Shown piece after piece: positions 11,787 to 20,055 of a stretch of DNA of 46,555 nt. The notes beneath the pieces were generated by a model. The model was given only the letters and a program-made list of their open reading frames with translations. It made no database searches and was not told where the DNA came from. Where the stretch lies: assembly GCA_036229005.1 (NCBI GenBank), contig JAZAMN010000074.1, positions 1-46,555 on the forward strand, given 5' to 3'. Numbering within the stretch: position 1 is the stretch's first letter; each line of letters starts with the position of its first letter. The translations under genes were made by a program, and so were the position numbers. The stretch comes from Myxococcota bacterium. GTDB taxonomy: Bacteria > Myxococcota_A > UBA796 > CAJQPC01.

Positions 11787-14777
11787 CTACTCCGCGGTGA
11801 GCGCGCGGATGTGGACGTCGGCGACCAGCCAGGTGTGGTTCGATGAGAAGGTCTGGAACCAGACGCGCAGTCGGGCCCCGACGCCGTGCTCTTTTGCGGC
11901 CATCAGGACGCTGCGCGGGAAGCGGGGGCCGCCGGGGCGGAGCTGTCTTCCGGAGATCCAGTCCGGCAACTCCTGCGGCCAGCTCTTCTCTCCGAGCCGC
12001 GCCGCGCCGGGCGTGCCGTTGGGGTACCAGACCACAAAGTCCAGCTCCACCTGGGCCGCGTCCTGCAGCAGCAGCGCCGGGTCGCCGGGCTCCAGGACCG
12101 TGATTGCGAGCTCCTCGTCCAGCAGCTCCGCGGTCAGCGGCGGGCCACAGCGCTCTACCGGTGCCATTGCCTGCCAGGTGCTCTTCCAGGCCTCGTACTC
12201 CGGCGTCTCCAGCCGGGGGGGGTCTGCGGGCAGGCTCTCCGGGAGGAAGAAGGGCGAGGGGGTGTCCACGCTCAGTCGGCCCACCTTCTCAAGGCCGCTC
12301 TCCTTCAGCACCCGCGCCTCACAGCTCTGCGTCGGCGAGGACAACAGCAGCCGCTCCACAGTCCACTCGCCGCGCCCGGCCAGGGGCTCGCCGCAGAGCT
12401 CGACCAGGGTGTCTCCCTTCTCCAGCCAGTGCTCCTCGATGCAGACCCCGGCGACCACCTGCAGACCGTAGGGCGTCGGCTCCAGGATGGCGTTGATGCC
12501 GCGCTGTTCGTGGATGGTGGGCCCCTGCTGGACGATGTGGTGCTCGCCGGGGGCCACCCGCTGCATCCAGCCCTGCCCCCAGACCCAGAGCGGCCAGCCG
12601 GGGTCGGGGATCTGCACGCGGCCGGCAAGGTCCGTCTCCAGGTACAGCGTTCGGGTGTAGTGGGGGAGCTCGCCCCACACAGGCTCCTGGCCGTCCAGCG
12701 CGACGCTGATCTGGGCCCCGACGACGGGGAGCCCGTCTTGGCCCAGGACCCGGACACTGCTGGTCGCGGGCTGGGGATCGGCGGTCAGCCAGATCACCTG
12801 TGGGCTGTCGTTGTCGATCCGAATGGGGGTCGCGTGCTCGGAGGTCAGCACTGCGCCCTCCCAGGTCCCTGGGCCCAAGTGGAACCCGGCATAGTCCCCT
12901 CGGATGTCGACGATCTCGGAGGCGCTGCCCTGGCGAAGGACCAGCATCTCGTCGGGCTCGGTTCCGGCGACTTGCCGGTAGCGGTGCCGGCCGACCTCGG
13001 TTGTCTGCCCGTCGACGTCCGTCCAGGCCAGGACCCCCCGGCTGTAGGTCTGCGGGGCTCCGGAGAAGTCGAGGCCAGCCGCGCCCCTGGGCTCGCCGAG
13101 CGTCTCCAAGACGACCGCTCCGGACGCGGGGACGCTCTGTTGGGACCTCCACTGACGGGTGATGGGGACCTCTCGGGCGTGGAAGGTCACCTGGGCGCCA
13201 ACGAGCAGACCGGGAACCGCCACGCTGCAGTCGGGGTGCAAGGGGGTCCAGTTCGGGTGGCGGTACAGGGCAGTGGCGGCGGTCTCCACAGCGCCAGCGC
13301 AGCCGGGGAGGGTGAGCGGAACCGAGCGGACCTGGGGGGTCAGGCTCAGGCTCTCACCGGGCCGGGGGGCGGGGACAGTGTATGTCTGGAACCTCGGGAC
13401 CCCAGGCACGGTGTCCTCGCTGATGAGGGTGATTGCGAGGAACTCCACGTGGTCACCGACCCAGACGGTGTGGGTGGATCCGGGGGAGCCGAGCGGCCTT
13501 GTGTGCCCGGAGGAGGAGAGTCGGGACGACTGGAGCTCCAGGGACTGGCCCTCCAACAGCTCGGGCACCGTGATCTCCACCCGCCCGTAGGCCTCCCAGC
13601 CGCCCGGGGGCGTCATCTCCCTGGGGGCTCCGGCGGGGTGGGGGTGGAAGAGGAGGCCGGCGGAGCTGAAGCAGTAGGCGCCGCCCTCACCCCAGGACAC
13701 CCGACTGCAGCGCAAGGGGGTGTCAACGCTCGCCTCAAGCGAGGACAGGTCAATCAGGACCTGGTCGATCAGCAGAGTGCTGCCGTCGGGGGACAAGGCG
13801 GCAGGCCCGGTGACCGGGAAGGTCGCCAGGAATTCGCCGTCCGCGCTATAGAGCCAGCTCTTGCTGCGGTTCTGGACGAGGACGCGCTCGGCGCTGAGGA
13901 GGGTGAGCTGGCCGTGCTGCTCCAGGACGCGGTCGGGCGTGTCGGCGCGGAGGACTCGGATCTCGCCTTGCTGGGTGATGGCGCCGGTCTGGCGGTCGCT
14001 GCGCTCCGCCCGGTTGAGCCAGATGGACTCGCCGATCAATCTGACGTAGCTGTAGCTCTCGGTGTAGTCGGCCAGCGCGCGCACCAGCCAGCTTGGGTCG
14101 GTGGGCGCGGGCGCGTCCGGGGCGCAGACCAAGGGCTCGGGGCACCAGTCCTGGGGCGGCGTGACCTCGCCGGTGTCGATGTGCCACAGAAAGGGCTGTC
14201 GATCGAAGGTCTCCATCAGCCGCCCGGTCTGCCCGGCTGAACTTCCGGTGTAGGCGCTGAGCCAGACCGACTCCGCACCCCGGTCCAGGCTGGTACCGGC
14301 GTGGACCCGCTTGACGCTCCAGCGCCCGACGGGGTCATCCTGGAGGTGGCCCATCCACGGCTCTTCCAGCAGCGACCAGCCTGGGGGCAGGAAGAGGGCC
14401 TCGTCCACGCTGCAGCCGCGCTCCTCGCAGTGATTCTGGGCGTCCTTGATCGCCGAATCCGCCGGGACATTGGCCTGCACCCAGGCGCAGGTCTCCGCCC
14501 CACCCGCCACACAGCCCTGGACCAGGGGGACTGTGTCCTCCCTCCGGGGGCGCTCGGGCAGGGCCTGGATCAGCGCGGAACAGGCCGGATCGTGGCCCAG
14601 CGTGCAGCCCTCCAGGCGCAGGCTCTCGGCCCGGGCGCTCAACGCGCCGTCCTCCAACGGGAGGCTCTGGGTGAGCTGCCAGCAGGCAGCCCCGTCTCCG
14701 TCCGCGCAGGCGTCCCAGGGGGCGGAGTCGAAGGCGAGCGCGGCGGGCGTCAACAGGCTCAGGAGGGTGGGGATCAC
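11787..14777 (-). CDS. Large secreted multidomain protein (Sel1/Hcp-like Cys repeats, propeller-like region, possible PDZ-like segment)
   Basis: GTG at 14777 overlaps the upstream stop (GTGA); signal peptide MIPTLLSLLTPAALA; CADGDGAAC, CTLGHDPAC and CVAGGAETC repeats; LEKGDTLVELCGEPL resembles PDZ. Confidence 0.6.
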   Translation of the reverse strand: MIPTLLSLLTPAALAFDSAPWDACADGDGAACWQLTQSLPLEDGALSARAESLRLEGCTLGHDPACSALIQALPERPRREDTVPLVQGCVAGGAETCAWVQANVPADSAIKDAQNHCEERGCSVDEALFLPPGWSLLEEPWMGHLQDDPVGRWSVKRVHAGTSLDRGAESVWLSAYTGSSAGQTGRLMETFDRQPFLWHIDTGEVTPPQDWCPEPLVCAPDAPAPTDPSWLVRALADYTESYSYVRLIGESIWLNRAERSDRQTGAITQQGEIRVLRADTPDRVLEQHGQLTLLSAERVLVQNRSKSWLYSADGEFLATFPVTGPAALSPDGSTLLIDQVLIDLSSLEASVDTPLRCSRVSWGEGGAYCFSSAGLLFHPHPAGAPREMTPPGGWEAYGRVEITVPELLEGQSLELQSSRLSSSGHTRPLGSPGSTHTVWVGDHVEFLAITLISEDTVPGVPRFQTYTVPAPRPGESLSLTPQVRSVPLTLPGCAGAVETAATALYRHPNWTPLHPDCSVAVPGLLVGAQVTFHAREVPITRQWRSQQSVPASGAVVLETLGEPRGAAGLDFSGAPQTYSRGVLAWTDVDGQTTEVGRHRYRQVAGTEPDEMLVLRQGSASEIVDIRGDYAGFHLGPGTWEGAVLTSEHATPIRIDNDSPQVIWLTADPQPATSSVRVLGQDGLPVVGAQISVALDGQEPVWGELPHYTRTLYLETDLAGRVQIPDPGWPLWVWGQGWMQRVAPGEHHIVQQGPTIHEQRGINAILEPTPYGLQVVAGVCIEEHWLEKGDTLVELCGEPLAGRGEWTVERLLLSSPTQSCEARVLKESGLEKVGRLSVDTPSPFFLPESLPADPPRLETPEYEAWKSTWQAMAPVERCGPPLTAELLDEELAITVLEPGDPALLLQDAAQVELDFVVWYPNGTPGAARLGEKSWPQELPDWISGRQLRPGGPRFPRSVLMAAKEHGVGARLRVWFQTFSSNHTWLVADVHIRALTAE

Positions 14778-16030
14778 TGGGCACCTCCGGCGAGGCCTGG
14801 GGTCTTGAGGGCGCGGACGAAGCCGTCGTGGCTGGCGACGACCAGCTCCACGCGGCCGTTGCCGGTCAGGTCGGCGGCGAGCACGGGGGCCTCGATGGCG
14901 GCGGGGGCGCTCCAGGACCAGAGGAGCTGGCCCCGCTGGTCGAGCGCGAGGACCTGTCCGCCCTCCGTGGCAACGATGACCTCGCTGGCGCCGTCCCCGT
15001 CTACGTCTGCGAGGGTGGGGGTCGAGCTGATGCGTTGGGCCAAGATGGGGACGGACCACACCACCTCTCCTTCCAGGCTCACGCAGCTCACGTTGGCGTC
15101 TGTGCGCGAGCGAGGAATGACCAGGCACTGGGCCTCCGCCCACCAGGTGAAGGTGTGGACGCGGCCGTTGAGTGCGCCGGGTGTGCTGTAGAGCAGCTTC
15201 GGCTTGCCGGTGGCGCCGTCGGCGATGACCACGGTGGAGCCGAAGGCGCTGAGGACCTCGGGCTGGCCGTCGCCGTCGACGTCGACGATCTGCGGGCTGG
15301 CCTCGTAGTAGTACGATTTGTGGCGCCAGAGTTCGGTCTGGGTGGCGCCGTCGAGCGCGATGAGCAGGTGGCTGTGGCGCCCGGCGACCACCAGATCCTG
15401 GACGCCGTCGCCGTTCAGATCCCCGGAGGCGACCTGGGAGAAGGCCTTCTCGAAGTCCCGCGCGGGGGTGAGCTGGGAGACGCCGGAGCCTTCGACCGGT
15501 GGATAGGGCTTGAGGGTGCCCGTGGCGACGCTGGGGTCGACCACGCTCAGGTGGCGGCTGCGCTCGGGGGCGCCCAGGATCCGGGGGCCATCGGGGCTCT
15601 CCCAGAGCGTGGGGGGAAACTCGATGTCGGCGCTCTGGAACACCTGCCAGAGCAGCTCCCCGTCGCGGTTCCAGCTCAGCATCCCGTTCTGGTCTGTGCT
15701 GACGGTCCAGCCGGCGTCGGTGACCAGCACGCCGTTGACGTCGGACTCCTTGGCCGCCTCGGAGGGGGGCACGGTGAGCTGCTGGAGCGGGCGCCCCTTG
15801 GCGGCGTCCAGGACCCAGAGGCCGTCGAGGGGATCGGGGCCTTCGCCCCAGGTCTCGCCGTTGGAGGGGACCAGGAGCTGGCGGCCGTCCAGCACCATGG
15901 GAGAGCGCCAGCTCAGGCGGCCGACCTGGGCCTCCCAGAGCACGCGGGGGCCGCGGATGAGGGCGTCGCCGGGGTCCCCGGGGGGGAGGGCGGTGGTGGT
16001 GGGCGCGCAGGCCAGGGTGAGCAGCAGCAA
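14774..16030 (-). CDS. Lipoprotein with PQQ-like/FG-GAP beta-propeller repeats
   Basis: MLLLTLAC lipobox; GDLNGDGVQDLVV, DVDGDGQPEVL, DVDGDGASEVIV, DLTGNGRVELVV; G-x-x-x-W blade motifs; TTG start with GGAG RBS. Confidence 0.85.
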   Translation of the reverse strand: MLLLTLACAPTTTALPPGDPGDALIRGPRVLWEAQVGRLSWRSPMVLDGRQLLVPSNGETWGEGPDPLDGLWVLDAAKGRPLQQLTVPPSEAAKESDVNGVLVTDAGWTVSTDQNGMLSWNRDGELLWQVFQSADIEFPPTLWESPDGPRILGAPERSRHLSVVDPSVATGTLKPYPPVEGSGVSQLTPARDFEKAFSQVASGDLNGDGVQDLVVAGRHSHLLIALDGATQTELWRHKSYYYEASPQIVDVDGDGQPEVLSAFGSTVVIADGATGKPKLLYSTPGALNGRVHTFTWWAEAQCLVIPRSRTDANVSCVSLEGEVVWSVPILAQRISSTPTLADVDGDGASEVIVATEGGQVLALDQRGQLLWSWSAPAAIEAPVLAADLTGNGRVELVVASHDGFVRALKTPGLAGGAQ

Positions 16031-16109
16031 GGGAGACTCCAGGGCCGCTGAGGACGGACCACGCAGCCCTTTATTCGTCTAAACTGCCAGGACCTCCTTG
16101 AGGATGCCG

Positions 16110-16553
16110 ATGCCCAAGTACCGCCAGTGCCCAAGCTGTCTCCGACACACCGCGCGCGAGCAGAGCGCCTGCGCCCACTGCGGGGCCGAGGGAGCCCAGA
16201 GCACCGGGAGCCTGTCGCTGGGTGGGCGCTCGAGCGCGCTGGCTGCGGCGCTGGGCGTGTCGTTGGCCCTGGGGGCCTGCGGAGCCAAGGAGGAGCCCAA
16301 GGGCACTCCCGCGGCTGAAGTCCCGGCCCCGGCGCCTGAGACCGAGGATGAGGCGGCACCCGAGACCGAGGATGCCGCCCCCGAGGAAGAGGCCGAGGAC
16401 GACAAGGCACCGGAGGACGACGAGGCCCCCGAGGACAAGAAGCCCGAGGAGGACACCATCGAGGTCGGCGAGATCCAGCCCGCGGTCTACGGTGGCCCCC
16501 CGGTGGACCAGCCCGAGCCCGCTCCGGCGCCCCCGACCCCGCCCTCGGAGTAG
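16110..16553 (+). CDS. Zn-ribbon/lipobox protein with a C-terminal VYGGPP motif; candidate substrate of the adjacent radical SAM enzyme
   Basis: CPSC-x10-CAHC, then hydrophobic SALAAALGVSLALGAC, an acidic low-complexity linker and QPAVYGGPP; GAGG 6 nt upstream of ATG 16110; 9 nt gap to the rSAM gene. Confidence 0.75.
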   Translation: MPKYRQCPSCLRHTAREQSACAHCGAEGAQSTGSLSLGGRSSALAAALGVSLALGACGAKEEPKGTPAAEVPAPAPETEDEAAPETEDAAPEEEAEDDKAPEDDEAPEDKKPEEDTIEVGEIQPAVYGGPPVDQPEPAPAPPTPPSE

Positions 16554-16562
16554 CCCCCAGCG

Positions 16563-17864
16563 GTGGCGCGCTACGCACGAGAGGTACGCAGCGGCGAGCC
16601 GGTCCACCCGGTCTACTGCGTCTGGGAGATCACCCTGGCCTGCGATCTGGGCTGCAAGCACTGCGGCTCCCGCGCGGGTCAGGCGCGCCCCCAGGAGCTC
16701 AGCACCGAGGCCTGCCTGCGGGTGGTCGCGGAGCTGCACGAGATCGGCGTCCGCGAGGTCACGCTGATCGGCGGGGAGGCCTACCTGCGCGAGGACTGGG
16801 ACCAGATCGCCGCGGAGATCACCCGCCTGGGGATGCGCTGCAGCATCACCACTGGGGCCCGGAACCTGGACCAGGAGCGGGTGGACCGGGCTGTCGCTGC
16901 GGGCGTCGGTGCCGTCTCGATCTCGGTGGACGGTCTGCAGGCCACCCACGACGCCCAGCGCGGGCCCAAGGGCTCCTTCCAGGCCGCCATCCAGGCCGCG
17001 AGGCGGGTCGCCGCGTCCAGGATCCAGCTCGGCTTCAACACCCAGGTCAACCGCCTGTCGCTGCCCGAGCTCCCGGCCATCGCCGACCTGCTCGTGGAGA
17101 CCGGAGGCCGCGCCTGGCAGCTCCAGATCACCACCCCCATGGGGCGCGCCGCCGACCGCCCCGACCTGCTGCTCCAGCCCTACGAGCTGCTGGAGCTCTT
17201 CCCGCTGCTGGTCTGGATCAAGCAGGCCAAGCTGGACCCCAACGGTGTGCGCCTCTTCCCGGGCAACAACATCGGCTACTTCTCGCCCTACGAGGCCCTG
17301 CTGCGCCACAACGGCGACCAGGGCGTGCACTGGAACGCCTGCTCCGCCGGCAAGTGGACCCTGGGCCTGGAGGCCGACGGCAAGATCAAGGGCTGCCCGT
17401 CGCTCCCCAGCGGCCCCTACACCGGCGGCATCCTGGGCCAGGACCGCATCCAGGACGTGCTCGACCACGCCCCCCAGCTCACCCACCTGCGCGAGCGCGG
17501 CGTCGAGGACCTCTGGGGCTTCTGCCGCGGCTGCTACTACGCCGAGACCTGCAAGGGCGGCTGCTCGTGGATGGCCAGCACCCTGTTCGGGCGCACGGGC
17601 AACAACCCCTACTGCATCCACCGGGCCCTGGACTTCGAGCAGCGGGGCCTCCGCGAGCGCGTGGTCCGCGTGCAGGCCGCCCCCGGGGAGCCCTTCGACT
17701 TTGGCCGCTTCGAGATCCGGGTCGAGGGGCTCGAGTCCACCTCCGAGCTGGAGGGCCCACCGACCCTGCTGGGGATCGACCCCGGACAGGCCGTGACGCT
17801 GGATCCCACCAGCGAGGGACTCTGGGCGCAGACCGAGCTGCGCGCGCGCCTCAAGCGGAGCTGA
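16563..17864 (+). CDS. Radical SAM/SPASM-domain peptide/protein maturase, splicease (PlpX)-like
   Basis: VWEITLACDLGCKHCGSRAG (CxxxCxxC), IGGE; SPASM CSAG...DGKIKGCPSL...CRGCYYAETCKGGC...NNPYC. Confidence 0.9.
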   Translation: MARYAREVRSGEPVHPVYCVWEITLACDLGCKHCGSRAGQARPQELSTEACLRVVAELHEIGVREVTLIGGEAYLREDWDQIAAEITRLGMRCSITTGARNLDQERVDRAVAAGVGAVSISVDGLQATHDAQRGPKGSFQAAIQAARRVAASRIQLGFNTQVNRLSLPELPAIADLLVETGGRAWQLQITTPMGRAADRPDLLLQPYELLELFPLLVWIKQAKLDPNGVRLFPGNNIGYFSPYEALLRHNGDQGVHWNACSAGKWTLGLEADGKIKGCPSLPSGPYTGGILGQDRIQDVLDHAPQLTHLRERGVEDLWGFCRGCYYAETCKGGCSWMASTLFGRTGNNPYCIHRALDFEQRGLRERVVRVQAAPGEPFDFGRFEIRVEGLESTSELEGPPTLLGIDPGQAVTLDPTSEGLWAQTELRARLKRS

Positions 17865-17874
17865 GCCGGTCGGT

Positions 17875-18321
17875 TCAGAGGCTGCTGCGGCTCACCGTCA
17901 CCACCGTCACCTTGTTCTTGCCGGCCTGCTGCGCGGTGAACAGCGCCTTGCGGGTCAGGGCGTAGGGCAGGCTGCCGTCCGCGCGGATCTGGACCTGCTC
18001 GCCGGGGAGCTGCTGCAGGGCGCCGTGCAGCTCGGGGATCAGGGTGTCCGGGTTGTTCAGGTAGTAGCGGGTGCCCGCGATGCGCTGGCCCTCCAGGTAG
18101 AGCCCGTGGGTGGTCAGGTCCACGCTGATGTGGCTCTGGACGGGCTGCTCCGAGGTGCTCATGGGGAGCGAGAACGCGCTGTCCCCGGGGCGCACGGGCG
18201 CGTCCGTCGAGTAGGACTTGAGCAGGAAGACCAGCAGGATGGTCATCAGGTCGACCATCGGGGCCAGCGCCGCGGTGCCCAGCGCGCTGGCGCTGCGGGT
18301 GGGGGGGAGCAGGCGCTTCAC
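17875..18321 (-). CDS. ExbD/TolR family protein (AglS-like)
   Basis: LAPMVDLMTILLVFLLKSY TM with the conserved Asp; IRADGSLPY motif; GTGA coupling to the upstream gene. Confidence 0.88.
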   Translation of the reverse strand: MKRLLPPTRSASALGTAALAPMVDLMTILLVFLLKSYSTDAPVRPGDSAFSLPMSTSEQPVQSHISVDLTTHGLYLEGQRIAGTRYYLNNPDTLIPELHGALQQLPGEQVQIRADGSLPYALTRKALFTAQQAGKNKVTVVTVSRSSL

Positions 18322-18863
18322 GGGGTCGGCTCCAGGGTGTCCTCGCTGGCGGGGGAGGGGGGCACGGGCTGCTGAACGCCCAGGGTGACCAGAGGGTAGA
18401 GATCGCCGCTGCCGTCACGCCGCATCGCGTCCATCAAGTCGACCACCTGGCTGTTGCTGAGGCTGTCAGCGGGGATCAGCGTGGCCCGAGTGCGCTCGGG
18501 ATCCAGCTCCTTGTAGCGGCGCAGGACGCTCTGGAGGGCGACCAGATCGAGCCGCTCGCCGCTTGGGACGATGCGCTCGCTGCGGGCTTCGGTCTCGCCT
18601 TGGCCGGCGCCGAGATCGCTGCGGCGGACCTGGGCGGTGACGCGGAGGCTGGCGTCTTCGTCCACCCAGACGCTGAGGTTCTCGACGGCGCCAGGGGGCT
18701 CGGGGGGCAGATCGGCGGCGCTCCCTGCCAGGCGCAGGTCGATGCCGGCCAGCTTCTGTACCGAGGTGGTCAGCAGCAGAAAGGGCAACAAGAGCAGCAT
18801 CAGCGCCACCACCGACAGCAGGGCGGGGCGTGCGTCGGCGGTGCGCGAGGCCGGGCGGGCCAT
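18318..18863 (-). CDS. ExbD/TolR family protein, divergent
   Basis: TM LLLLPFLLLTT; C-terminal LIPAD....VVDLMDAMR..LYP pattern; sits between exbB-like and exbD-like genes with overlapping start/stop codons. Confidence 0.75.
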   Translation of the reverse strand: MARPASRTADARPALLSVVALMLLLLPFLLLTTSVQKLAGIDLRLAGSAADLPPEPPGAVENLSVWVDEDASLRVTAQVRRSDLGAGQGETEARSERIVPSGERLDLVALQSVLRRYKELDPERTRATLIPADSLSNSQVVDLMDAMRRDGSGDLYPLVTLGVQQPVPPSPASEDTLEPTP

Positions 18864-19459
18864 CAGCCGTCGGATGCGCGTCTCCTAAGGCCCAGAGCGA
18901 GCTTTCCGGCGGCGGCCTCGAGCTCGGCGACGCGGCTGCGGGCGACGCCTTCGAGCCAGGCGTGCAGGCCCAGAGCGGGGATGCCCACGAGCAGGCCGAA
19001 CGCGGTGGTGGCCATGGCAGTGGAGATGCCCTCGGAGAGGCGGGCGGCGCGCTCACCGGCGGAGGCGTCGCCGAGAGCGGAGAAGGCCAGGATCAGGCCG
19101 TACACGGTCCCGAGCAGGCCCAGCATGGTGGAGATGTTCCCGGCTGCGGCCAGGTAGGCCACGCGCTTGGAGATGCGCGCTTCGGCCTCGACAGCGGCTG
19201 CGGACATCGCCTCCCAGGCCAGAGTGGGATCGGACTCGGCCAGGCCCGCGCCCACAACCTGGGACACCGGGCTGTCCTTGAGCTCCTTGGGCTGCTCTCC
19301 GCGGGCGAGGACATCGTTCAGGTCCTTGGGCGCCCGCCACATGAGCAGCAGGGCCGCGCGCTCTGTGGCCACGGCCAGCGTGAACGCCAGCAAGACCAGG
19401 ATGGCGTACATGAAGCCCGCGCCCGGACCGGAGAATGCTTTGAGCAGATAGTCAATCAT
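18863..19459 (-). CDS. MotA/TolQ/ExbB proton channel family protein
   Basis: STMLGLLGTVYGLILAF and GISTAMATTAFGLLVGIPA motifs; ATG at 19459 with GGAG RBS. Confidence 0.92.
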   Translation of the reverse strand: MIDYLLKAFSGPGAGFMYAILVLLAFTLAVATERAALLLMWRAPKDLNDVLARGEQPKELKDSPVSQVVGAGLAESDPTLAWEAMSAAAVEAEARISKRVAYLAAAGNISTMLGLLGTVYGLILAFSALGDASAGERAARLSEGISTAMATTAFGLLVGIPALGLHAWLEGVARSRVAELEAAAGKLALGLRRRASDG

Positions 19460-19506
19460 GTGCTCCCTTTGTTGCACCCGTCGGGCCGTGGTGCAAGGTT
19501 GCTCCC

Positions 19507-20055
19507 ATGTGGATCCTGCTGAATCTTTGGGCGTGCACCAGCGCCGACACCGAGTGGACCGAGCCTTCGCAGTGCGAGGCCCAGAGCGGACAGGCCGCGG
19601 ACGAGTGCTACGCCGCCGTCGCCCAGCTCGTGATCGCCACCGATGAGCCCGCGGGCATCGCCCTGGTCGAGAAGATCCAGGACCCGCTGACCCGGGACTA
19701 CACCTGGTACGCCATCACCCGCGATGTCTTCCCCAACCGGGGGGATCTGTGTGAGCGCATCGAGGGCGAGGAGATCGCCGAGCGCTGCAAGGTGTACGTC
19801 AAGCGGCCGCACCTGAGCCGCGGAAAGCAGACCGACGGACCGGGACCTGGGGGCGCTGGTCGTCCGGGGGCACCTCAGCCTGAGGGCGGTCCGGGCACCA
19901 AGCCGCCTCCTCCTGGTGGGATGAAGCCGCCGCCCCCGGGTGGGATGAAGCCGCCGCCGCCCGGTGGGATGAAGCCGCCGCCCCCTGGTGGGATGAAGCC
20001 GCCGCCCCCCGGGACCGAGGGTGTGCAGCCGGCGCCCGAGGGCAGCCCGGAGTAG
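19507..20055 (+). CDS. Hypothetical lipoprotein with a Cys-bridged helical domain and Pro-rich repeat tail
   Basis: MWILLNLWAC lipobox-like start; (GGMKPPPP)x4 tail. Confidence 0.7.
   Translation: MWILLNLWACTSADTEWTEPSQCEAQSGQAADECYAAVAQLVIATDEPAGIALVEKIQDPLTRDYTWYAITRDVFPNRGDLCERIEGEEIAERCKVYVKRPHLSRGKQTDGPGPGGAGRPGAPQPEGGPGTKPPPPGGMKPPPPGGMKPPPPGGMKPPPPGGMKPPPPGTEGVQPAPEGSPE
19900..20013 (+). repeat. 24-bp tandem repeat (4 full copies plus a partial) encoding GGMKPPPP
   Basis: ggtgggatgaagccgccgcc.. units start at 19915, 19939, 19963 and 19987; variation only at synonymous positions. Confidence 0.9.

Follow-up and report, generated by a model that had tools for sequence, protein, structure and literature searches.

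A candidate zinc-ribbon lipoprotein substrate beside a splicease-like radical SAM enzyme: a widespread and apparently unnamed myxobacterial variant of a known splicease pathway

Spliceotides are peptides made by the ribosome and modified post-translationally (RiPPs), altered at XYG motifs by spliceases, which are radical S-adenosylmethionine (SAM) enzymes with a SPASM domain. The splicease survey of Scott et al. 2022 covered 189 genera and yielded 27 confirmed enzyme-substrate pairs, as summarised in one review (PMC10849128), while another describes the native products and natural roles of spliceotides as still unknown (PMC9811515). In the binary systems, which lack a Y protein, a leader helix has been modelled at the site that PlpY would occupy, and fusion of this helix to the enzyme resulted in leader-independent splicing (PMC11414181); the figure titles in the supplement of the same paper also name splicease types III and V. 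Lipoprotein-RiPP hybrids have been described for multinuclear non-haem iron-dependent oxidative (MNIO) enzymes, in a paper whose main text contains no occurrence of 'radical SAM', 'rSAM', 'splice' or 'zinc' (PMC13056109). Spliceotides and lipoprotein-RiPP hybrids are each already published, and the chemistry itself is known. The subject of this work is a two-gene unit in a 46,555-nucleotide stretch of DNA from a Myxococcota bacterium (GenBank assembly GCA_036229005.1, contig JAZAMN010000074.1, positions 1 to 46,555; hereafter the window), which pairs a splicease-like enzyme with a protein bearing a zinc ribbon, a lipobox and one XYG site, and which represents a widespread, apparently unnamed myxobacterial variant of the known splicease pathway. 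No paper on a zinc-ribbon lipoprotein as a splicease substrate was found in a search that had most of the subscription literature outside its scope, and Scott et al. 2022 may include this clade; literature listings contained no report of myxobacterial splicing from 2023 onwards.

This work demonstrates the anatomy of the unit, the family assignment of its enzyme and the co-conservation of its motifs at related loci. The probable activity of the system is the excision of tyramine at V-Y-G in the cytoplasm, followed by export and lipidation of the substrate through the general lipoprotein pathway. Both genes lie on the + strand, at 16110-16553 and 16563-17864, in a region of approximately 71% G+C. 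Checking the translations placed the motifs reported for both genes where a previous reading of the DNA, made from the sequence alone, had put them, and bore out the 9-nt gap between the end of the precursor gene and the GTG start codon at 16563. The features are as follows.

16100..16104, + strand: ribosome-binding-like site GAGGA, 5 nt upstream of the precursor ATG, read from the sequence and putative in function
16110..16553, + strand: precursor/substrate protein P0001, 147 amino acids, from the open reading frame (ORF) translation
16128..16181, + strand: zinc ribbon C7-x2-C10-x10-C21-x2-C24, putatively zinc-binding and predicted to dock on the SPASM-side surface of the enzyme
16224..16280, + strand: hydrophobic signal-peptide-like stretch, residues 39-56, closing with the lipobox L54-G55-A56-C57, presumed to be lipidated
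16281..16484, + strand: acidic Pro/Ala-rich low-complexity linker, recognised by composition
16485..16502, + strand: putative splice site V126-Y127-G128, then G-P-P, from motif conservation in relatives
16563..17864, + strand: splicease-like radical SAM/SPASM enzyme P0002, 433 amino acids, GTG start at 16563
16641..16664, + strand: radical SAM cluster motif CxxxCxxC (C27, C31, C34), invariant in 119 aligned enzymes
17340..17615, + strand: SPASM-type auxiliary cluster region, C260 to C351, with seven Cys, all invariant in 119 aligned enzymes

The precursor contains five Cys (7, 10, 21, 24 and 57), forming the CxxC-x10-CxxC and LGAC motifs originally noticed, and two Tyr, Y4 and Y127 (codon at 16488), the second being the only one downstream of C57, as also claimed. 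The 15-residue hydropathy peak, of 2.07, falls at residues 43-57, and the 91-residue mature part contains 30 Asp/Glu, 20 Pro and only five Lys/Arg. The linker sequence is not conserved among relatives. No curated NCBIfam or Pfam model matched the precursor meaningfully, and a search of metagenome contigs with this low-complexity, fast-evolving protein alone returned no matches; the nearest Atlas clusters are unnamed Myxococcota proteins, with scores of 0.88-0.89, which serve as leads only.

Using the enzyme, 33 related loci were fetched, whose named relatives are mostly Myxococcota (loci, genomes and contigs are numbered L, G and C respectively). At 28 of them a protein with a zinc ribbon and a lipobox is encoded adjacently, whether upstream, downstream or divergently; 27 were identified by a script, once two false hits in L026 had been set aside, and L005 was read directly. 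YG is present in 25 of these 28 partners, at one to four sites each. Among the other five loci, L023 and L031 have almost no upstream sequence, L012 and L026 encode other YG precursors, and L008 has no partner within 3 kb. Pfam and NCBIfam returned only weak generic zinc-ribbon matches to the aligned relatives of the precursor. A leader-only profile was then made from 28 aligned rows, picked by their zinc-ribbon and lipobox patterns, and the four ribbon Cys and the lipobox Cys are invariant in these rows, having been selected by those motifs. Across the fetched loci this profile identified 92 proteins, of which 84 were kept; the eight dropped were four without a located Cys, one mis-parsed, one frameshifted, the query and one duplicate. 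The five Cys-less rows, comprising the first four and the mis-parsed one, all carry YG.

In the 84 leader-selected proteins YG is present in the mature part of 83, and Tyr stands before Gly at 154 of 203 occurrences, where 2000 shuffles that preserve composition gave 26 on average and 44 at most, although the relatives are not independent and a few rows duplicate those used in training. Pro lies two positions past the Gly at 123 of the 154 sites, and the preceding residue is highly varied (L 31, A 24, V 19, C 17, M 13, D 12, P 12, E 9). As background, 5 of 40 crude lipoprotein-like ORFs of this genome contain YG, and none contains YG-x-P. The YG directly follows the lipobox Cys in 16 of the 84, a class that the profile favours, as it spans two residues past that Cys. 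Hence ribbon, lipobox and YG are co-conserved at homologous loci, a check that the sequence-only reading had proposed, and the neighbouring genes of homologues retain the YG motif, whose loss would have counted against that reading. Lipid anchoring of the substrate, also part of that reading, is usual in the family without being universal: five members of an array at L074 and the partner at L103 keep YG and lack the lipobox Cys.

The substrates vary in architecture. In many of them near-identical YG sites recur along a low-complexity tether, and acidic double-Cys repeats close many of the sequences; in two members Pfam PF11617 matches these repeats. Locus L074 (G050:C128:72000-80000) lies on another contig than the enzyme and is a tandem array of approximately 14 YG proteins led by a zinc ribbon, most of which end in the acidic double-Cys repeat. 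Loci of the C-Y-G class, in which the spliced residue would be the lipidated Cys, are the L040:3689-4030 region (G000:C18:83688 onward), L013, L014, L016, L022 and L033; on contig C18 two further small lipoproteins, with neither zinc ribbon nor YG, sit between precursor and enzyme. Larger, folded-looking domains carry the YG sites at two loci: at L103:1055-2038 (G096) the domain is helical and follows a zinc ribbon and a signal lacking Cys, and at L102:3374-4060 (G037) the domain is compact, lies between two VYGG sites and belongs to an ORF truncated at the contig end. The precursors at L105 and L106 (G081 and G007), encoded immediately upstream of the enzyme, keep the lipobox and several YG-x-P sites with a ribbon reduced to one Cys pair.

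The enzyme carries WEITLACDLGCKHCGSRAG and seven more conserved Cys (260, 278, 321, 324, 330, 334 and 351, the last within GNNPYC), giving ten that are invariant across 119 aligned homologues. The Cys pattern is SPASM-type, as first proposed, but the protein does not end at GNNPYC, continuing for 82 more residues. The Pfam SPASM model has no match to this enzyme at E<=0.1, and the same model matches many close homologues. Hidden Markov model searches of NCBIfam place TIGR04103 (468 bits; cut-off 725) and TIGR03913 (438 bits; cut-off 592, or 591.75 exactly) far ahead of all other families, the next being TIGR04133 at 151 bits (cut-off 425) and the haem-synthesis models at no more than 119 (cut-offs 500-650). 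Genuine members of TIGR04103 and TIGR03913 score 415-439 bits on each other's model, a cross-family range close to the values for this enzyme, while the Nostoc TIGR04103 member scores 853 on its own; therefore the enzyme is a sister of both families but belongs to neither. Its identity is 49% to that Nostoc protein and 43-46% to three enzymes of the GDL/DUF1843 type. In a quick tree of 37 rows, with inner branching partly unresolved and long outgroup branches, all 30 splicease-like rows form one branch (Shimodaira-Hasegawa-like approximate likelihood ratio test support of 99), separate from seven other radical SAM enzymes of the genome. In a second quick tree one row was spurious (L012_x1) and one was frameshifted (L020). 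The enzyme is splicease-like, as first suggested, and does not cluster with the non-peptide SPASM enzymes of haem d1 or Ahb synthesis. Conversely, the suggestion that TIGR04133/TIGR04134 is the relevant family fails, both on the score of the enzyme and on the lack of any TIGR04134 match in the genome or among 26 aligned precursors, with Bacteroides thetaiotaomicron positive as the control. The AlphaFold model of the enzyme (predicted local distance difference test score, pLDDT, of 93.9) resembles SkfB, PqqE, ChlB, SuiB and anSME at 14-23% identity, and no splicease structure was found on searching the PDB by sequence and by fold.

Enzyme and leader also co-occur across genomes. Searching 151 genomes of the phylum, with thresholds of E<=1e-70 for the enzyme and E<=1e-6 for the leader, identified the enzyme in 47; the 35 genomes in which a strong leader was found are all among these 47, and a strong leader is found in none of the 104 genomes without it, although these genomes are related and so not independent. 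Within 3.5 kb of an enzyme lie 55 of 87 strong leaders, the other 32 being orphans that include the approximately 14-member array in G050. The source genome (G000) encodes three enzymes, on contigs C74, C18 and C22, and three full leaders, on C74, C18 and C59, each of which comes with YG. On C18 the pair belongs to the C-Y-G class, and the enzyme falls together with those of other C-Y-G loci. The C22 enzyme (L041, G000:C22:74897-76168), which has no partner, falls among loci with substrates similar to the orphan YG precursor on C59 (L039:5716-6033), and on these sequence affinities it is likely that the C22 enzyme acts on the C59 precursor in trans.

How the enzyme would recognise this substrate is suggested by structure prediction. 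A complex of the enzyme with precursor residues 1-59 and zinc scored 0.66, against 0.02 for the best of three controls; of 157 solved complexes 116 attain the mark applied, as do 2 of 215 mismatched pairs, a calibration that holds only roughly here (own alignments, zinc included). The runs agree in at least 76% of contacts, with a partner pLDDT of at least 68, and, since no splicease structure was found in the PDB, a score arising from a memorised structure is less likely. In the model, ribbon residues 2-6, 11-13 and 22-23 contact enzyme residues 240-246, 325-329 and 352-356, while precursor residues 39-52 form a helix packed on enzyme helix 207-221. The model thus supports binding of the leader to the enzyme, as a prediction of the interface. 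The previous proposal that the zinc ribbon serves as the recognition leader holds in part: the ribbon is predicted to dock, but not alone, as the hydrophobic signal helix docks too, and the ribbon is reduced in L105 and L106. A search for a ribbon-specific signature on the enzyme surface did not clearly find one. Tyr326 is replaced by His in three close enzymes with no ribbon partner seen adjacent, at L012, L101 and L102 (the last cut by a contig end), and the L101 enzyme deviates at three positions of the patch predicted to bind the ribbon (325, 326 and 353).

A natural fusion bears on the same question independently of the model. The enzyme WP_282302620.1 (540 amino acids; L036:1722-3344), from Tropicibacter oceani plasmid NZ_CP124618.1, has a zinc-ribbon leader fused in frame at its N-terminus, which scores 27.5 bits on the leader profile and lacks both a lipobox Cys and a YG tail; in the tree this enzyme is nested among those of myxobacteria. 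It is a single case, which could be a deletion product, and no further leader-enzyme fusion occurs among 122 stored proteins. The fusion gene is flanked by genes for a phosphotransferase, a trypsin-like peptidase and an M23 peptidase; a YG that occurs early in the phosphotransferase was disregarded as a substrate.

The proposed pathway has four steps. Firstly, the N-terminal 57 residues of the precursor are predicted to bind the enzyme in the cytoplasm via the zinc ribbon and hydrophobic helix, replacing the PlpY helper or RiPP recognition element (RRE) of type I systems. Secondly, homology and motif suggest that the enzyme would excise C8H9NO at the YG site. Thirdly, the hydrophobic helix would then serve as a signal peptide for export through Sec, with Lgt lipidating C57 and signal peptidase II cutting off the leader, such that no dedicated peptidase or exporter would be needed. 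Fourthly, the product would be an envelope lipoprotein of 90 residues, with one ketoamide at the tip of an acidic tether. The genome has four matches to Lgt and two to signal peptidase II. No PqqD match was found in this genome, which is 94% complete; as PlpY is only distantly PqqD-like, this is a weak test for an RRE. Cytoplasmic modification followed by Lgt/LspA processing has been demonstrated for RiPPs of MNIO enzymes (PMC13056109), a precedent that makes the proposed order of events plausible and explains the absence of a peptidase and exporter. The least certain step is the last: the most likely job of the ketoamide is the inhibition of a Ser or Cys protease, or similar nucleophilic enzyme, at the cell envelope, to which we give slightly less than an even chance. 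We infer this role from other spliceotides, the variety of X residues and the gene arrays.

Several observations weigh against cytoplasmic splicing followed by lipidation. The enzyme scores below the curated cut-off of every family, and the comparison covered annotated family members in place of PlpX, PcpX and RhaX themselves; PlpX is given in a review as IPR026482, which would place it in TIGR04103. A stretch of 42 residues that includes a folded domain, ahead of the hydrophobic region, is unusual for a lipoprotein signal. The modelled ribbon-contact residues F240, Y325, Y326 and H353 are largely common to GDL-type enzymes, which have no such partner. YG is replaced by YT in the partners of two Sorangium loci (L015 and L017), by YR in L018 and by YA in one L045 protein (L045:867-1457). 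Of the 47 enzyme-bearing genomes, 12 have no strong leader; in several of these the enzyme has a weaker or reduced leader next to it (L103-L106) or there are other YG peptides (L108), and five represent a more distant enzyme branch. The nearest sampled enzyme (L101, G131:C61, 70%) has no adjacent partner within approximately 2 kb, and the best leader in that genome has an E value of 7e-4. Finally, not all YG sites are spliced, with the DYG site in RcsA having stayed unmodified (PMC11626197).

The alternative that survives best concerns only the final step. Splicing and lipidation could proceed as proposed with the ketoamide acting not as an inhibitor, but as a reactive handle for covalent attachment in the envelope, a metal ligand or a signal to a receptor, which is quite possible. 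The repeated YG sites on the tethers and the acidic double-Cys ends, with PF11617 in two members, fit such roles, and the C-Y-G proteins, with YG directly after the lipobox Cys and no tether, have a poor geometry for reaching proteases. However, the highly varied residue before YG and the approximately 14 paralogues at L074 fit a panel directed against different targets, and tested spliceotides inhibit proteases when spliced and not when unspliced (PMC11626197).

A different outcome at the YG tyrosine, such as a cross-link, a backbone cleavage freeing a C-terminal peptide or another radical modification, is unlikely. Radical SAM/SPASM enzymes shift chemistry readily, this one falls under all family cut-offs with only 43-49% identity to reference members, and partners with YT, YR and YA exist. 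[quoted passage not shown]

It is quite unlikely that the substrate is spliced and never lipidated, the hydrophobic stretch being an uncleaved anchor or enzyme-binding helix and the zinc ribbon being kept on the product. This would suit the long 42-residue N-terminal region, the predicted burial of the helix on the enzyme, the Cys-less versions at L074 and L103, and the existence of zinc-ribbon, membrane-anchor proteins without YG, one encoded in the source genome (C34) and similar ones in the Atlas. Yet a lipobox-like Cys ends the stretch in nearly all relatives, even if the profile favours this, and at approximately 14 residues the stretch is short for a stable anchor; judged by eye, the Cys-less versions close with small residues of the kind found where signal peptidase I cuts, which points to export of these too. 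The suggestion that the two genes are chance neighbours, with an incidental YG beside a non-peptide SPASM enzyme of Ahb/NirJ type, is effectively excluded: in its favour, AhbD, NirJ and other SPASM models match the enzyme weakly (at most 119 bits) and 21 of 61 enzyme matches have no strong leader within 3.5 kb, but the family scores, co-conservation, YG enrichment, complex model, co-occurrence and tree, as well as the three enzyme paralogues and three YG-bearing leaders in one genome, are all contrary.

Splicing in the cytoplasm, then lipidation, would have several consequences. If true, it would carry RiPP-lipoprotein hybrids beyond MNIO enzymes, to radical SAM spliceases, and a signal peptide would double as an enzyme-binding leader. 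A lipid-anchored substrate would stay on the producer cell, and so could be isolated from membranes and used to pull down its target. The family would also offer spliceases for many X residues (Leu, Ala, Val, Cys, Met, Asp, Pro and Glu) and a natural leader-enzyme fusion, useful for protein labelling. A broader and more doubtful proposal is that in a large and unnamed modification system of Myxococcota one N-terminal tag, of zinc ribbon and signal helix, acts as both export signal and handle for recognition and activation of the splicease, with the enzyme masking the signal until the YG is rewritten; paralogous pairs, three of them in this genome, would serve separate substrate classes, thereby generating a diversified coat of lipid-anchored or secreted ketoamides, including one on the lipidated Cys, as envelope-bound protease traps in predation or defence.

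The surroundings of the unit were scanned as 10 ORFs, from 9.7 to 20 kb of the window. The immediate neighbours are all on the - strand: upstream lies the gene of a beta-propeller FG-GAP protein, downstream those of ExbD, ExbD and ExbB homologues. These were rejected as parts of the system, given the variation, by eye, of neighbours among related loci. The ExbB and two ExbD/TolR homologues (17875-19477, - strand) converge on the enzyme gene across a 10-nt gap, and no link to the splicease system was found. No small ORF lies between or beside the precursor and enzyme genes, and between 15900 and 18100 nothing resembling a sigma-70 promoter or a terminator was found. Further away, a 182-residue ORF (19507-20055, + strand) has a lipoprotein-like start, tandem proline-rich repeats of approximately nine residues near its end and no family match, and an open frame of 1118 residues (11787-15143, - strand), whose true start is probably more internal, has no Pfam or NCBIfam match.

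The locus has both hallmarks of a splicease system, these being a SPASM radical SAM enzyme homologous to PlpX, as judged against annotated members, and an adjacent XYG precursor. It shares this enzyme group and XYG target with the type I systems PlpX/PlpY/PlpA and PcpXYA of Pleurocapsa (PMC11414181), and a Nostoc type I-like precursor ends in L-Y-G-L-P-P, the same YG-x-PP core as the precursor here. However, type I systems employ a Nif11 leader and a separate Y/RRE protein, whereas this precursor has no Nif11 match and the genome no PqqD; furthermore, the substrate here combines a zinc ribbon with a lipobox and a long acidic tether, and the enzyme reaches 468 of the 725 bits required for TIGR04103. 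The binary systems, among them the type II systems of Rheinheimera (RhaX/RhaA, RcsX/RcsA and RasX/RasA; PMC11414181, PMC11626197), are alike in having two components and a leader helix modelled on the enzyme instead of a Y protein, and the N-terminal fusion in Tropicibacter parallels the engineered C-terminal RhaX-leader fusion (PMC11414181). The leaders in a published alignment were cut at a double-glycine motif (PMC11414181), whereas the leader here ends in a lipobox and has a zinc ribbon. The GDL-motif/DUF1843 maturases of TIGR03913 belong to the same enzyme group (438 bits of the 592 required, and 43-46% identity), but their partners are DUF1843 peptides of 55-70 residues rather than zinc-ribbon lipoproteins, and no DUF1843 match was found on the precursor or 25 relatives. 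The Bacteroidota TIGR04133/TIGR04134 system likewise sets a radical SAM/SPASM enzyme beside a putative lipoprotein, going by the family names, and these lipoproteins presumably carry YG motifs. The DAG-RiPPs DybA and NedA share modification in the cytoplasm followed by Lgt/LspA/Lnt processing, with related substrates that have signal peptidase I signals (PMC13056109), and the hydrophobic stretch with a lipobox Cys before the core that typifies them is present here by both pattern and conservation. They use MNIO enzymes and ordinary short signal peptides (PMC13056109), in contrast to the splicease-like enzyme and long ribbon leader of this locus. Hence, by analogy, this myxobacterial system resembles a binary spliceotide system and a DAG-RiPP together.

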